Below, piece after piece: positions 30,001 to 36,000 of a stretch of 37,506 bases of DNA. Numbering within the stretch: position 1 is the first letter of the stretch; every line of letters begins with the position of its first letter. The position numbers are program-made. Source of the stretch: a virus. Its lineage: Duplodnaviria; Heunggongvirae; Uroviricota; Caudoviricetes. The stretch lies in the IMG/VR virus record IMGVR_UViG_2802429245_000007; one strand, 5' to 3'.

Positions 30001-33000
30001 CCAGCCAGCAATCGCAGTTCACGGTAAGCCTGACGCCCCGGAATGCCAAAGAAGCGGAATTGCTGAACACGATGCAGAGACGCCCAGGCATTAACGTATT
30101 CAGCGTTATCACGCAGGGATTTACCCGTTTCCTTGCTGATCTCGCCAGCCAGACCACGCCCGTCAATGTTCTTACTGATGTATTTCGCGATGTAGCTTGT
30201 TGGCGTACCTTTGCGCGGGTTTATCAGCTCAGACTTAAAGCGTGGTCCCGTGTTATTACCCAGCTCCTCGCGGTCTTCACGAATGGCAAACTTACGCAAC
30301 AAAGCAGTAATGGCGCGGCGATCTTTTTTGCGCATAAAACACAACAGGTGCCAGTGAACTGTACCGTCATGATGCGGCTCAGCCACCCGCACGCCATACC
30401 AGCGCAATCCGGCTTTGTGCATCGCCTTACGAAATGCAGCAAACATGCCGACCAGATAATCACTGCTTTGTCTTACCGTCGCATTTGTCCAGGTCGGGTT
30501 GGGCCTGCCGTTATTTAGCGTGGAATGGAAACGTGACGGACAGGTGATGGTGTAGAAAACGGCGCAGTCACTGCGCATTTCCGCGATAAGCTCCAGACCT
30601 TTAACACAGGCCATCATCTCATTGCGGCGATGCGCCGGGTTGCTGCTGCTGGCGTTTACCACATCTTCCATATCCAGCGTGTCGCCGTTTTCGTTCACCA
30701 GTTCATGAGAACGGAAAAACTCCAGCGACTTACGGCGCTGCTCACGTTTATGCATCACGGCTTCATAGCTGACATAGGGAGATGCTTTTTTGCTGACCAG
30801 GCAGACAGCACGCAACTGCTCTTCCCGCCATTCGCAGCGCATCTTCCATAATTTCCGATACCACCAGTCGGCACACAACATACGCGCCAGCGAACCCGGA
30901 ATGAGTTCATAGGGCACGGGTTTGCGACGCTTTCTTTTCCGACGAAGTTGCTCAAACGCAGGCGGGATAACATCCAGTCGCAGGGTTTCCGCTGCCACCT
31001 TTTCCCATGTCTTGCGGATTTCTTCTGGCTTAACATCATCGGTGGCGTACAAATCACCACAAGCGGCATCAAGGCACATGCTCATATGCGCAGCTACCAG
31101 GGTGGACAGGCGTTTCACCTGATCCTGACTCATTTCAGGCAGGATCAGCAGGCCGTCCAGCCCTTCATGGCTCGCCATAAAGCGAAAAGAAGTGGATAGC
31201 TGACTGTCGCGTACATGCTCCAGCCGTTCCAGACATGGCTTAATCGTCTCACGCAAATAGCGGGAATAAGCCTTTGGCCTGCCCAGGCTGCTGAAGTATT
31301 CAATACGTTGCATCAGCGGCTTGCTGATATGGGAAGGCTGGGCGTTAACGTCCGCCAGAATGACCATGTCCGGATTAAAACGCTGCTGCTCATGCGCCAG
31401 CTTTGCCCGGCTAATGAGCTTATCCTGCTCCATTTCGCGTTGGACAGGATCACGGGATTCATTAAAGAAATAACGCTCCCAGACCTGATCACTCAGTGCC
31501 TCGCGGCGCACTTGTTCCTGCTCGTTATCGGCAGCGTACAGAGTGATCAGGTTTGAAAGCGCAGAAACCGGCGCAACTTCCGCCGGGTCCAGATAAGGGT
31601 TAATGGCTTTCTTAGGTAAATTCCACGAATAACCCCCGGCAGAATTCTCAATGCTACCGGAAGTTACACTGACAAATGGATCGGCAAGACGGCCTGTGCT
31701 GATCTCTGTCACTCACAGACTCCTGCATATACACTGCTGCACACCGCTTTATCATTCATGCCTGCCAGCAGGTCAAACTGCATACCGCCCCGAGTCGTTA
31801 AGGCCCAGTCCCGATAAGTTTCAATGCCATAAGCATCAACAGTTATGACTTCGATCCGTTTTTCATCACGGCGCGGATCATGCGTGGATGGAAAGAACGT
31901 TGAATTGCCACGTCTTGAACATTCCGCAACCAGTCTTTCCCACTCAGCCACTCGGCGGATTTCTTCTGGCCAGCGTTGGAAAATCTCAGCAAGTTCTGAC
32001 TTGCGAGCATGAATACATGGCATACAACCGACACGACTGCATCCCTGCATATAAAGGGGGTTAGGCTTAATGCCATGACGTTTGGCAATAGCAAACACAT
32101 CCTCATGCAGCCAATTAAGGATCGGACGATAAACATGCAGGCCCAGAGTATTGTCTGCATCGTCCTCCCACTCAGGCAACAATGCACGTTCCGGTGATTC
32201 CTGCCCCCGGACTCCTTGCCAGCTGATTACCTCATCGTATTCATCCAGAGCCGGATCGATTACCTGTGTACGTATTGGTTCATGTTTCAGTTCAAAAGTG
32301 CAGAAACGAGCTTTTGTTGAAGGGAAGCGACCTTTCCACATGCACAAATCAAGAAACGGAACGCCGGTTGGTTTAAGGATTTCCAGTGCCCGGTAAATAC
32401 GTTCCTCAGCCTCATCTGTCGACATACCACATTCCTCAACGAGAGAAATGGGCCACTTTTCCGCAATGAATTTACGTTTCCCTTCTATCTGGCGTGTGAA
32501 ATCCGCTTTGACGCGAATAATCTTGCCCAGCTTTGATTCCAGATAATCCAGATATTCTATTGTCTGTGGATGTTCATGACCCGTATCGGCAAATACAGAA
32601 ATATGCGGAACATCGTTTTCAATGGCTCTTAACCATTGAGCGAGACTATCTTTGCCACCAGAAGTAGTGATGATGTTAATGGTGCTTGAGGCAAAGCAAC
32701 GCGGATCGATAGCATTCATGCGCGTACCTCAACGGTACGGTCAGAGCCGCTGGCAAAATCGACACCAAACCACCCAGCTGATTTGGTGGCAATGATTTCT
32801 GTTGCAGATTTACTCTCGCCAGCTGACACGCCAATGCTGCGTTTTGACTTGATGTAGTGGTGAGTGAAATTGCGATACAGCGAACGGATCAGGGATGTGT
32901 CACTGTTAGAAACAATGACCGGATGACCTTCAGATGATCGATGTTCAAGAACGGATGCCAGGTGATACTGGTCATCTTCAGTGAAGCCATCAGTGTGATA

Positions 33001-36000
33001 GCCGGAAAACGTACCGTCATAAGGCGGATCGCAATACACCACATCCCCCACCTTCAACATCGCCAGCGTTTCATCAAAGCTGGCGCAGATAAACGTTGCC
33101 TGCTGGGCTTTCTCTGCAAATGCGCGAATTTCTTTTTCAGGGAAATACGGATTTTTATAATTACCGTAGGGAATGTTGAAATACCCGCTCTTGTTATAGC
33201 GACATAACCCACGGTAACCATGACGATTGAGATACAGAAAATATACCGCTTTCATGAAATCAGTAATTTCAGTGGAGTAATTAAACTCCTGCCTTATGTT
33301 GTAATAAGCCACCTCCCTGTTTGCTTCCTCAAATAAAGCTCTGGCACGAGATATAAACGCCTCACAATCAGCAGCAACCTTTTTATAGAGGTTGATTAAA
33401 TCAGGATTAATATCCGCAACAAGATAGCTGGGGTAATCCGTCTCCATCATCACTGCACAGGAACCCGCGAAAGGTTCAACCAGTCGCGGGCCAGCAGGAA
33501 GATGCTTTTTCAGTTCGGACATTATGGCGGTTTTATTTCCCGCCCATTTCAGGATGGTGCTCATACAGCACCTCCGTTGTAATGTTTGCCTTTCAGCTCT
33601 GCGATTTCCTGACAGGTAATGCAAAGCTGCACACCCGGAATGGCACGACGGCGTGCTGGCGGAATTGGCGCTTCACACTCAACGCAAAGCACGCGGGACA
33701 CGCCCGGCGTTTTGGCACGGGCAGCACGGATATGACGTTGGCGTTCTTCTTCAACTCGCTGCTGGACGAGATCCATTGCATCAGCCATCAGTGGATCTCC
33801 TGCGCTTCGTTCTGGATTGCTTCAGCAGTCACACGCAGCAGTTCTGCCGCTTCGACGTGGTTTAACTGGCGGGATGTGATATGACACGCCAGGCGATCAA
33901 GGCGAGCTGCCATTGCTTCAGCCCTTGCCCGGCGTTCTTCCAGACGAGCCTCTGTCAGTAAAATATTAAGCCCTGCGTCATCCGGTCCGGTTTTAGTCGT
34001 GAGGGTATCAATATTACGCATAATCAATTCTCCTGAATTTAGATAAAGGGATGCCCGGCGGGTTTACGCCATTAATTTCATTAGTTGGTTAATTCGGCAT
34101 GGTTAGCCGTCTGGGAAATAAGCTCACCACTGCACGAAAATGATTCATTGCTTTAATCAGCTCCCGCTTTTCGTCAGTGGTCAGCTCATTAATGCTGATG
34201 CTATGACGTTCAGCTGGAATTTTTGCCATAAAGAATATGGCAGCCAGTGCCCGTTTATTTTGTTCATTATTGATATCCCGTGGATCACGCATATCTTTAA
34301 TAAACCGCTCAAGCTCTGACTCAATATTCAGGCCAAAAACTTTCGCCCTTAACTCCGCAATGTGATTAAGTCCATTCAGGCGTTCACCGGGGCTTAATGG
34401 AACAGTCGCCGCAGCGCCTTCAATAGCCATTGGTTCCCCCGTTTTTTCGTTGATAGTTCTGCCAGCAATTCATCTTGTGAACGGCACGGATGCCAGCGTT
34501 TACCATCCTCACCCATGATCCAGCCGTGACCGTAGTGCATTGCCGGACTTTGTTTTACCAGCAGCGATGCAAATGATGGTTCTTTCGTCAGCATAAGCAC
34601 CTCACAGCAAACCGAATGAAGCACCGAGGCCAGTCACGGTATCAACTGCACTCGCCATCGCAGGATTAGCCTGTAAACGGGCCTGCAATGAAACAGCAGC
34701 CAGCGCCATCAGTCGTGTAACAGAGTTAATGCTGCTGATCGCATCACGACGGCCTGCACTGGTTTTTACATCGCCAGAAACCGCACCTGCCGCGACACGC
34801 CCTATCTCTGCAGTTGCACTCATGACGTAATGCGGCAGTTTCTCTTTTGCCACCTCATTAATCGGTACACATGGCAGGCAGTGAATCTGTGCCAGAAAGC
34901 CATCTACCAGCGTTGAATCTTCAGTCAGATCGGTAAGCAACCAGATTTCTGGTGCGGTTAATAAATGAGGTTGAGCTGGGTTCAGCTTGTTCCGCAGAAT
35001 CTGCACATTCATGCCTGCACGTTCTGCCAGTTGCACTAGGTTGTGGCGCAATGCGAATGCACGACAGGCTTCATCAAAATGTGGATGTTTGGAAACTTGG
35101 TAATCAAACATGGTCAATGCCTCTGATGTATTTCAGAATCGAACTAATTAAGGTTTAGATTGCATTCTGAAAGCGCATCAACGGTCATGGCTGCTATGTT
35201 GATCATCACTTTTTCACGTTTTTTATCTTTGCGCAGACGGTGACGGATAAGGCGTCCGTCAGCCAACATGTCATTGATGGTATCGATGGACAGCCCTGTC
35301 AGCTCGCTATAGCGTTCAATAGTCACATGAGGCGTGGTAAGAGTGATTGAAATGTTAGGTCTCATGATGCAACATTCCTCGTTTAATGATGATTAATCAG
35401 GACGAATACGGATCGTTTGTATTTTGTGAACACCATAAACATACGATCGCACAATGAAATCGTCAAGATAAAAGTTCACTTGGAGTGACCATGAATTTGG
35501 AGAAAGGCGGACGAGGCGCTATAGAGCGCATGGTAGAAGCTTATGGATTCAAAACTCGACAGGCGTTGTGCGATCATTTAGGAATCTCTAAAAGTACACT
35601 CGCCACACGCTACATGCGTGACTCATTCCCAGCAGAATGGGTAATCCAGTGCGCCCTTGAAACGGGCACCTCGCTTAATTGGCTCACAACCGGACATGGT
35701 TCAAAGCAAACTTCAGGTAATACAAATACTATGGAAGTTGCTAAATATGTATTATCTGATGGTGCCTTGCGTGAAGACGGTTTTTATATTTTTGATAAGG
35801 GATTTCTACCCTCTACGTTTAAAAAACCTTTTGTCATCACAGATAACAATTCTAAATTTATTTGTGATAAAGAATTTGATGATATACGTGACGGTAAATG
35901 GGTAATAAGTATTGATGGCGAAATAACAATCCGCGACATTACTCGTTTACCCGGTGGAAGAATCTTCGTTGAAGGTGGAAACAGAGCCTTCGAGTGCAAG

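Follow-up and report, generated by a model that had tools for sequence, protein, structure and literature searches.

Cargo genes coupled into replication gene A of a P2/186-like prophage: a TraR homologue, an orphan Dam methylase and a PAPS-reductase-like protein of the phage 186 Orf84 family

Do the three overlapping genes upstream of the replication gene of a P2/186-like E. coli prophage form one DNA-modification or anti-restriction module, as a sequence-only reading had supposed, or do they perform separate jobs? The window that we analyzed is the whole 37,506-nucleotide stretch of the Caudoviricetes record IMGVR_UViG_2802429245_000007, a prophage with 100% identical counterparts in E. coli RefSeq genomes; EC416 is one of the E. 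coli strains that carry the identical locus. All three accessory open reading frames are intact with the boundaries first drawn for them, and they lie with gene A on the minus strand in the order TraR-like, Dam, PAPS-reductase-like, A. The whole set is placed in the early lytic operon, which bears out the early expression that had been claimed. A pR-like candidate promoter (TTGACG-17-TATGTT; 35438..35466, minus strand), found by consensus scan only, sits between the divergent cI gene and a cox/apl-like gene, a position that agrees with the annotated pR of phage 186, and it presumably drives the entire operon. Gene order and strand logic are those of the 186 early lytic operon (orf81, which is DksA-like, orf82, orf83, orf84 and A): the TraR-like gene follows a DUF2732 gene, and an Orf84 homologue lies directly upstream of A and overlaps it. 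Unlike the present prophage, 186 carries a DnaQ-like exonuclease gene (orf82) and a DUF5405 gene (orf83) in place of Dam, and the two A proteins are only ∼32% identical. The arrangement is real but belongs to a type that is known and has been annotated before.

We favor, with slightly better than even confidence, the reading that these genes are non-essential cargo of the early (pR) operon with three separate jobs, coupled into A, and that the PAPS-like gene is a cassette in an insertion hotspot. All genes would be translated from one polycistronic early transcript, with ribosomes handed from gene to gene through stop/start overlaps and finally into replication gene A (29271..31712, minus strand), a rolling-circle initiator (Pfam Phage_GPA, 4e-126). 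Such hand-over would let cargo be swapped without loss of A expression. Read from the sequence, the DUF2732/TraR junction is TGATG, a 1-nt overlap. The TraR/Dam junction is GTATGAGC, with GGAGGTG upstream, and the Dam/PAPS-like junction is GCATGAAT, with GAGGT upstream; both are of the ATGA type, which had been claimed to continue into A. At the last junction, GAGTGACA, the overlap is instead GTGA with a GTG start, and a Shine-Dalgarno AGGAG stands 7 nt upstream. This GTG at 31712, overlapping the PAPS-like stop codon, is most likely the start of A, as 18/18 homologous PAPS-to-A junctions examined have a start codon, ATG or GTG, that overlaps the TGA stop; the PGAP start of A in the identical EC416 prophage is an ATT (window 31652), 20 codons further downstream. 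In the record of phage 186, orf81–84 are marked as not essential and the A start as overlapping, with a remark that A seems to be translated only when orf84 is translated to its end. The overlaps are nonetheless statistically unremarkable, since such overlaps are ordinary in phage operons.

The first gene (33561..33788, minus strand) encodes a 75-aa TraR/DksA-family protein whose C4 zinc finger, recognized in the sequence-only reading, is confirmed by its four cysteines (C35-x2-C38...C56-x2-C59) and by a TIGR02419 score of 67.1 against a cutoff of 59.7. It also matches Pfam zf-dskA_traR (4.4e-11) and phrog_54 (1.8e-30), its N-terminus carries D3 and D6, and its relatives in the PDB are YbiI (3.8e-11) and RNA polymerase-bound TraR (5w1s, 6n57; 2e-9). 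The protein is a homologue of the 186 DksA-like zinc-finger protein and of P2 Orf82. TraR homologues bind RNA polymerase, mimicking DksA plus ppGpp, and both P2 Orf82, from the same operon position, and lambda Orf73 were experimentally tested in work showing that the family reprograms RNA polymerase (PMC9239242). The present homologue would likewise act as a DksA/ppGpp mimic, binding in the secondary channel of the host's RNA polymerase and shifting host transcription. As the family, P2 Orf82 included, acts on RNA polymerase, we rejected the TraR-like gene as a DNA-modification gene, and it drops out of the module that had been proposed.

The second gene (32716..33564, minus strand, ATG start) encodes a 282-aa orphan N6-adenine DNA methyltransferase of the Dam family (D12 class), as had been recognized. 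It has the motif D179-P-P-Y182, matches Pfam MethyltransfD12 at 1.7e-76, and scores 321 against TIGR00571 (cutoff 115) but only 288 against the host-Dam equivalog NF008152 (cutoff 441); its best PADLOC match is an orphan MTase (1.3e-110). The phage-encoded enzyme shares 47% identity with E. coli Dam (2g1p) and retains the residues with which Dam contacts DNA (K9, Y119, L122, R124, P134 and Y138 are common to both, as is DPPY); GATC is therefore the likely target, and the enzyme is probably GATC-specific. It would methylate adenines in phage DNA under replication, with GATC as the most likely site, supplementing or replacing host Dam, and could thereby protect against restriction directed at GATC and perhaps against other restriction that senses modification. 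The advantage of a second GATC methylase is not obvious, however, because the host already has Dam and because the phage shows no avoidance of GATC (129 sites, observed/expected 0.80).

How the third gene came to lie behind Dam can be seen from the closest relatives, Kapieceevirus-type P2-like prophages of Klebsiella and E. coli such as ST11-VIM1phi8.4. These have the order TraR-Dam-A, with Dam overlapping A by 4 nt, and share the TraR gene, most of Dam and A with the window. Against the closest Dam-only prophages, megablast returned two pieces at 96% DNA identity with only 53% query coverage, and blastn mapped the breakpoints to 32789 and 31629. The ∼1.16-kb mosaic segment between them (31629..32789) spans the last ∼24 Dam codons, all of the PAPS-like gene and the first ∼28 A codons, and stands in for 135 bp in ST11-VIM1phi8.4. 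At the Dam breakpoint, inside the 3′ end of the gene, lies a hairpin with a 10-bp stem (32763..32788, minus strand; folding ΔG −15.6 kcal/mol, z −2.2), which came from a terminator-like scan whose total count was not above chance. Sister prophages fill the slot between Dam and A with a gene that is DpdA/TGT-like, with a C5 methyltransferase gene or with a divergent PAPS-like gene. The PAPS-like gene would have come as a cassette into a hotspot that bears other DNA-modification genes in sister prophages.

The same comparison bears on whether Dam and the PAPS-like protein act together. They could be an obligate two-component system, in which Dam gives GATC recognition and a PP-loop/Fe-S enzyme adds a sulfur-containing mark at or near the sites. 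The ATGA overlap of the two genes is in keeping with this, as are the presence of a D12 methyltransferase gene immediately upstream of the PAPS-like family in 12/54 loci, methyltransferase-to-PAPS overlaps involving other methyltransferase families, and a known PAPS-Dam fusion (bioRxiv 10.1101/2021.05.05.442762). We nevertheless regard the proposal as improbable. Dam occurs without the PAPS-like gene in 60/73 close relatives, with its C-terminal tail conserved whether or not that gene follows, and the PAPS-like gene occurs without Dam in several prophages and phages, with no methyltransferase upstream in 186, P37 or loci L005, L006 and L121. Because TraR-Dam-A relatives lack the PAPS-like gene, and 186 carries that gene but no Dam, the two do not form an obligate pair, and their adjacency may only reflect a common insertion slot.

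The third gene itself (31709..32719, minus strand) encodes a 336-aa PAPS-reductase-superfamily protein, 81% identical to 186 Orf84. Its assignment as a PP-loop/PAPS-reductase-like protein held up, with a Pfam PAPS_reduct match of 1.1e-33 and a canonical PP-loop, S20-G-G-K-D-S25. In a 95-sequence alignment this loop is invariant, as are six cysteines (C126, C140, C232-x2-C235, C327 and C335). The AF2 model (pLDDT 87.8) has PAPS/APS reductases as its nearest folds, followed by TtuA tRNA sulfurtransferases, with GMP synthases also among the matches; its last 15 residues, bearing C327 and C335, are disordered.

Is the protein then an auxiliary metabolic enzyme, a PAPS or APS reductase with which the phage raises sulfate assimilation in the infected cell? 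PAPS reductase is the name that automatic annotation gives it, and the fold, a DTG motif (45–47), an Arg loop (R171...E174 S175...R178) and an Fe-S CxxC are as in sulfonucleotide reductases; its CMPC lines up with GCEPC/GCAPC, the motif of the Fe-S APS reductases, and a cysteine near the C-terminus, on the flexible tail, is reminiscent of the catalytic cysteine of sulfonucleotide reductases. Since the DTG motif and Arg loop of true reductases are conserved too, reductase-type chemistry is possible from sequence alone, a point against the DndC/SspD-like reading that we prefer. Every CysH and APS-reductase model in NCBIfam scores far under its curated cutoff, however, with 63.8 against 154 for the CysH equivalog NF002537, 36.9 against 254 for TIGR02057 and 48.3 against 235 for the APS reductase model. 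The C-terminus of this protein departs from ECGLH, the motif of the reductases, and the invariant ATP-type SGGKDS replaces their degenerate loop. The E. coli host has its own cysH, and the gene is located in an early replication operon beside DNA methylases. On the scores and the canonical PP-loop we rejected the gene as CysH, and a metabolic role is very unlikely.

Under our preferred reading, the Orf84-family protein would be a DndC/SspD-like enzyme, not one of sulfate assimilation. We infer that it may bind ATP with its PP-loop, hold a [4Fe-4S] cluster on the CxxC and upstream cysteines, and use its mobile C-terminal cysteine pair, with the outcome being adenylation-dependent sulfur transfer on nucleic acid or engagement of a phosphorothioate-based defense. 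It belongs to the superfamily of DndC, SspD and BrxP and, like them, has a canonical PP-loop and cysteines that could hold an Fe-S cluster; the invariant pair C327 and C335 is likened to DndC/SspD, and the best matches in the PADLOC defense library are SspD (1.8e-23), BrxP (3.5e-12) and DndC (3e-6). Its matches to these enzymes are partial, however, and fall far under family cutoffs (17.2 against 290 for TIGR03183), as they do for every DndC model in NCBIfam; the protein is shorter than the ∼450–590 positions of DndC models, and has no DndA/D/E or SspA/B/C partners nearby; DndDE and SspBC, which DndC and SspD need, are absent from the window. PAPS reductases have been put forward as anti-defense candidates (PMC13551039), and the Vibrio crassostreae podophage p0018 encodes a protein with anti-Dnd activity in which a PAPS domain is fused to a Dam domain (Piel et al. 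2022; bioRxiv 10.1101/2021.05.05.442762). This is the only experimental link between pairing a PAPS-reductase-superfamily domain with an adenine methylase in a phage and defense evasion. The p0018 protein is one 479-aa fusion whose PAPS domain is N-terminal, the reverse of the gene order here, and short homologues from vibriophages reach only ∼27% identity over residues 16–236.

It is less likely, though a serious alternative, that three unrelated accessory genes share the operon and that the PAPS-like protein works outside DNA modification, in replication, in nucleotide or tRNA chemistry (thiolation or other PP-loop adenylation), or mainly as a translational leader for A. Each gene's presence or absence is independent of the others, some Orf84-family members give weak QueC and PP-loop family matches, TtuA and GMP synthases are among the folds, and the 186 annotation emphasizes A coupling, not a phenotype. 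In non-P2 phages the family adjoins replication initiators, including DnaT, Rep_O, DnaD, Toprim primase and ParB. Against this stand the PADLOC matches to DNA-phosphorothioation enzymes, the DpdA-like and C5-methylase genes that also take the slot, the anti-Dnd phenotype of the PAPS-Dam fusion (bioRxiv 10.1101/2021.05.05.442762), and a strong directional excess of several unrelated DNA methyltransferase families immediately upstream. Across diverse prophages, by a crude longest-ORF heuristic and statistics that ignore phylogeny, a DNA methyltransferase is the upstream neighbor in 19/54 loci (D12 in 12, C5 in 7) but the downstream neighbor in only 2/29. The genes found most often upstream encode methyltransferases, from at least three families, and often overlap the start codon of the PAPS-like gene. 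With these neighbors, the slot and p0018, a DNA-modification or anti-defense role of the PAPS-like protein is plausible but unproven, and this part of the proposed module, like Dam, stands as plausible. Family members with 41–42% identity in Burkholderia phage phiE125 (gp56-gp57) and Agrobacterium phage Rivra also lie in the early/replication region directly downstream of a DNA methyltransferase gene, with a 4-nt overlap, and in Rivra the order is methyltransferase-PAPS-methyltransferase. Unlike the present locus, both lie on siphovirus backbones and lead into ParB/O-type replication genes, not into gene A, and phiE125 gp56 is an N4/N6 methyltransferase annotated as similar to the Cfr9I and Pac25I methylases.

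The window carries a P2/186-like (Peduoviridae) prophage whose early lytic operon is encoded by the minus strand, with cI and int on the opposite strand. The operon begins with a cox/apl-like gene (35365..35144) and runs through cII (35117..34602), fil (34624..34394), a DUF5347 gene (34430..34089) and a DUF2732 gene (34027..33788) directly into three accessory genes, the TraR-like gene (33788..33561), Dam (33564..32716) and the PAPS-reductase-like gene (PAPS-like; 32719..31709), which is followed by replication gene A (31712..29271). The ORFs of all three accessory genes are intact, and the gene order and the stop/start overlaps running into A, as given by the sequence-only reading, can be read directly from the DNA. 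A sigma-70-like promoter (35466..35438, minus strand) occupies the same place as the annotated pR of phage 186, and from there to A our promoter scan found the coding strand free of further promoter-like sites, so that the accessory genes are early, in agreement with the expression timing originally proposed. Chromosomal prophages in E. coli EC416 and further strains match the 2.5-kb region at 100% identity, and PGAP gives the same four products for them.

The DUF2732/TraR junction reads TGATG, the TraR/Dam and Dam/PAPS-like junctions both read ATGA, and the PAPS-like/A junction reads GTGA, with a Shine-Dalgarno-like purine run preceding the start codon at each of these four coupled junctions. 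The earlier description of ATGA-type overlaps continuing into A is thus accurate for the two inner junctions but not for the last, where A starts with GTG. Since stop/start overlaps are routine in phage operons, we regard the observation as confirmed yet unremarkable. In an identical prophage, PGAP places the start of A at an ATT (31652), 20 codons beyond the GTG at 31712. We prefer the overlapping GTG because an AGGAG lies 7 nt upstream of it, because ATGA or GTGA is kept at 18 of 18 aligned homologous PAPS-to-A junctions, and because the curated phage 186 record has an overlapping A start and states that translation of orf84 to its end "appears necessary" for A translation; judged by this conservation, the RefSeq (PGAP) start is probably wrong. 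The final Glu codon of the PAPS-like protein is invariant, and its GAA or GAG provides the first base (A or G) with which gene A starts.

The sequence-only reading had grouped the three genes as one DNA modification or anti-restriction module. For the first gene, the C4 zinc-finger TraR/DksA identity stands, but membership in such a module is not supported. The TraR-like protein has 75 aa with a C4 zinc finger (C35, C38, C56 and C59) and scores above cutoff for both TIGR02419 (67.1 vs 59.7) and Pfam PF01258 (43 vs 24.9), and its nearest solved relatives are E. coli YbiI and the F-plasmid TraR bound to RNA polymerase. Its N-terminus reads M-A-D3-A-M-D6, so that it has D3 and D6, the acidic tip residues with which TraR and lambda Orf73 reach into the RNAP active site, though their equivalence to those of TraR is by position only, as HMMER left the N-terminus unaligned to TraR. 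In lambda Orf73, whose gene raised phage yield, a D3A/D6A mutant served as the loss-of-function negative control (PMC9239242). TraR homologues including phage P2 Orf82, which has been studied experimentally and has the same operon position as the TraR-like gene here, complemented a dksA deletion and directly reprogrammed host transcription (Gopalkrishnan et al., PMC9239242). The TraR-like gene is therefore best explained as a host-transcription regulator that stands outside any DNA-modification module; like its subfamily, it would be expected to bind the secondary channel of RNAP and to control promoters of rRNA and amino-acid genes.

The second gene was correctly read as a Dam-like N6-adenine methyltransferase with a DPPY motif. 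Its product belongs to the D12-class Dam family (TIGR00571, 321 vs a cutoff of 115), with the catalytic D179-P-P-Y182 and an E30-P-F-A-G-S-C that aligns with the E. coli AdoMet motif EPFVGAG. Over 258 aligned residues it shares 47% identity with E. coli Dam; it scores below cutoff for the host-Dam equivalog NF008152 (287.8 vs 441 bits) and is placed by PADLOC among orphan methyltransferases. By these scores it is a phage-lineage orphan methyltransferase rather than a chromosomal dam. The residues that contact GATC in the E. coli Dam structure 2g1p, which we take to be K9, Y119, L122, R124, P134 and Y138, are all kept in the HMMER alignment, which has R in place of N120 and N in place of R137. 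Because the DPPY motif and these presumed contacts are conserved, the target is likely GATC. The window has 129 GATC sites (observed/expected 0.80), which shows neither avoidance nor enrichment. A dam gene is also present in the host; presumably the phage enzyme gives faster or fuller methylation of rapidly replicating DNA or, alternatively, protects the phage on entering a restricting or dam-poor host. Dam is the common resident of the phage clade, being present in 63 of 73 gene-A-matched viral contigs, and the TraR-Dam region occurs in 1258 of 5426 complete E. coli genomes. We regard the gene as a conventional phage orphan methylase.

The Dam proteins of P2-like relatives (contigs L001 and L004-L140) also have a C-terminal extension of ~25 residues (W.G.D...G.D..V..EVRA; 32716..32790 in the window) past the aligned end of E. 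coli Dam, while those of other lineages (L007, L008, L014 and L026) have Cys-rich, zinc-finger-like tails instead. We considered whether a special Dam tail is linked to the PAPS-like gene, as a possible sign of interaction, and rejected this, since the W.G.D...G.D...EVRA tail occurs with or without that gene.

Whether Dam and the PAPS-like gene form one unit can be judged from relatives. The nearest phages are Klebsiella Kapieceevirus prophages, which match at 96% but lack the PAPS-like gene. Homology to Dam-only relatives stops within the Dam 3′ end (~32789) and resumes 28 codons into A (~31629), and from these breakpoints we conclude that the PAPS-like gene arrived as a cassette bringing both coupling junctions. 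Conversely, phage 186 has Orf84, the homologue of the PAPS-like protein, but no methylase; the genes before orf84 are those for a DnaQ-like exonuclease and a DUF5405 protein. In phage P37 two TraR-like genes precede the PAPS-like gene instead. Across the 73 usable gene-A-matched contigs, 60 carry Dam only, 10 carry neither gene and 3 carry both, the last too few for an association test; one short contig has the order TraR, PAPS-like, A. The segment is a mosaic of a Kapieceevirus-type TraR-Dam and a 186-type Orf84 cassette, and these comparisons argue against an obligate Dam/PAPS-like unit, so that the module reading is not borne out in its strict form: the closest phages and most matched contigs have Dam without the PAPS-like gene.

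Exactly where the mosaic breakpoint falls, the Dam 3′ end contains a hairpin (32763..32788, minus strand) that has a 10-bp stem and leads into a U-rich stretch. Its folding energy is −15.6 kcal/mol with a modest z-score of −2.2, the region corresponding to 186 tM1 has a likewise modest z-score, and a terminator scan gave a total at or below the level of shuffled sequence. The hairpin could be a translation-sensitive terminator like tM1, or chance.

The PAPS-like protein shares 81% identity with phage 186 Orf84 (residues 4-336) and 81% with homologues in Yersinia phage P37, matches phrog_424 at 1.4e-82 (the Orf84 family comprising phrog_424 and phrog_15238), and, like Orf84, is encoded directly upstream of A with an overlapping stop/start. 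The family is large, with at least 711 clusters (at 50% identity) at an E-value of ≤1e-30 and 2119 at ≤1e-10, and rare in E. coli, where it is found in 68 of 5426 genomes, 24 of them with the window allele.

The motif alignment of the family (95 sequences, 48-90% identity) agrees with the PP-loop/PAPS-reductase-like identity first assigned to the third gene. S20, G22, K23, D24 and S25 are invariant and G21 nearly so, giving a canonical ATP-pyrophosphatase PP-loop (SGGKDS), and a DTG motif, an Arg loop (R171, E174, S175 and R178) and six cysteines (C126, C140, C232, C235, C327 and C335) are also invariant. A PDB profile search lines up C232-M-P-C235 with the Fe-S motifs of APS reductases (GCEPC in 2goy and GCAPC in 7lhr); the CxxC of their Fe-S site is therefore present and their adjacent Cys-Cys pair, as such, is not, which leaves C126 and C140 as invariant candidates for the remaining Fe-S ligands. 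The AlphaFold model (pLDDT 87.8) is confident save for the last 15 residues, which hold C327 and C335. Its nearest solved folds are PAPS/APS reductases, then the [4Fe-4S] tRNA sulfurtransferase TtuA and GMP synthetase-type ATP pyrophosphatases, with neither DndC nor SspD among the top 50, and a sequence search of solved structures returned only CysH and APS reductases.

That the protein is nevertheless a CysH can be rejected, since every sulfonucleotide-reductase model scores far under its cutoff: NF002537 at 63.8 vs 154, TIGR00434 at 37.4 vs 165 and TIGR02057 at 36.9 vs 254 for CysH, and TIGR02055 at 48.3 vs 235 for APS reductase. SGGKDS stands where the aligned reductases have a degenerate SFSGAED or G-I-Q, and the protein has neither this degenerate P-loop nor the C-terminal catalytic cysteine motif of CysH/APS reductases, which we take to be ECG(L/I)H. 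Among defence-library models the top matches are SspD, BrxP and DndC. SspD is the best PADLOC match (1.8e-23, PADLOC applying no curated cutoff), in two stretches of which the better aligns residues 126-264 with model positions 71-202 of 277. The PADLOC DndC models match at 3e-6 over ~80 residues only, and DndC TIGR03183 scores 17.2 bits against a cutoff of 290. The partner genes dndD and dndE are absent from the operon, and sspA, sspB and sspC are absent near the PAPS-like gene. DndC has been described as an ATP pyrophosphatase that contains Fe-S and folds like a PAPS reductase (PMC8569181). The combination of a PP-loop of the ATP type with candidate Fe-S ligands and with cysteines on a mobile C-terminus fits this description; from these motifs, we infer that the PAPS-like protein is an adenylation-dependent sulfur-transfer enzyme.

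We sampled the neighbourhoods of 54 loci with an Orf84-family member, from Enterobacterales to Burkholderiales, Desulfovibrio and Paenibacillus. By a crude longest-ORF heuristic that ignores kinship of loci, a D12 methylase is the next gene upstream in 12 of 54 and a C5 methylase in 7 of 54, often with start-codon overlap, whereas downstream neighbours are mostly replication proteins (methylase in 2 of 29). These counts are suggestive, a pointer to a DNA-modification theme that falls short of proof. In phiE125, gp56, annotated as Cfr9I/Pac25I-methylase-like, overlaps the family member gp57, and in Agrobacterium phage Rivra the Orf84-family gene sits between two methyltransferases. The longest family representatives among the best 150 show no methyltransferase fusion, only PAPS_reduct and weak PP-loop/QueC matches. 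An SMC-like ATPase upstream of the homologue in locus L042 was considered as a Dnd-like partner and set aside, as it matches only generic ABC/AAA N-termini.

Taken with the motifs, this context favours a putative DndC/SspD-like role for the Orf84-family gene, either in modifying DNA or in countering defences, in which it may cooperate with methyltransferases. A vibriophage region with a fused PAPS-Dam protein confers resistance to host Dnd (Piel et al., preprint), and phage PAPS reductases are anti-defence candidates in a 2026 survey (PMC13551039). The inactive DAM domain of DndH has been proposed to block invader Dam methylases (Rakesh et al., PMC10853773), which would give a reason for Dam to be combined with a DndC-like protein. 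A bolder reading, which we consider rather unlikely, is that the family is a widespread phage version of DndC/SspD, made up of a single protein, and acts with whichever methyltransferase is encoded upstream, here the GATC Dam. The pair would then mark phage DNA in a way that contains sulfur or otherwise depends on ATP or, alternatively, would disable restriction that senses phosphorothioates (Dnd, Ssp, type 4 BREX). In that event the non-essential Orf84 of the classic phage 186 would turn out to be an anti-defence enzyme of broad distribution. As such the locus is ordinary: its genes all fall into named families, the accessory segment is already annotated, with identical copies in E. coli RefSeq, and the Orf84-family gene has long been known in phage 186. 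What makes it useful is that it offers a clean and genetically tractable case, in E. coli, of the recurring pairing of a methyltransferase with a PP-loop/Fe-S "PAPS reductase". P2/186 genetics are well developed, and sister prophages that differ only by the cassette are natural isogenic comparisons, which could tell if the phage "PAPS reductases" act in DNA modification or against phosphorothioate-based immunity, a question that recent papers pose without settling.

Other genes fill the same Dam-to-A interval in sister prophages and point likewise to a DNA-modification theme. Three loci (L080 3346-4176, L082 4198-5028 and L127 4222-4974) carry a DpdA-like/queuine-tRNA-ribosyltransferase gene of 250-276 aa there (phrog_887, to 2e-96, no Pfam match), which suggests 7-deazaguanine-type DNA modification in some P2-like prophages, and L106 carries a C5-cytosine methylase. 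In L118 (3676-4995) the interval holds a divergent 439-aa PAPS-like protein with a large insertion, 30% identical to the window protein, downstream of a Dam that is 85% identical; the interval has therefore been filled independently by two subfamilies. Between TraR and Dam, sister prophages have ASCH/DUF3850 or exonuclease genes, and in one viral contig, L109 (~3200-3930), an apparent IS1-like insertion, recognized by eye from InsA/InsB-like ORFs, breaks the DUF3850 gene.

Elsewhere in the window, a 584-aa ORF (15930..17684, plus strand) breaks the tail-gene block from the opposite strand and matches PADLOC ApeA at 1.4e-13 with no Pfam match; it is probably a defence gene in a P2 hotspot. Two genes (26165..28768, minus strand) lie between the portal-side genes and A, in the place of P2 old/tin, and may be a toxin or defence pair: one encodes a 384-aa RES-domain protein (Pfam 4e-18) and the other a 389-aa protein without a match in Pfam and PADLOC searches. 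Within the structural region is an Acyl_transf_3 acyltransferase (10185..11180, plus strand; Pfam 3e-21), like the O-antigen-modifying genes of some prophages. An Asp-Al_Ex/TrkA_C permease (937..2622, plus strand) is evidently a host gene, which places the prophage boundary near 2.7-3.1 kb.
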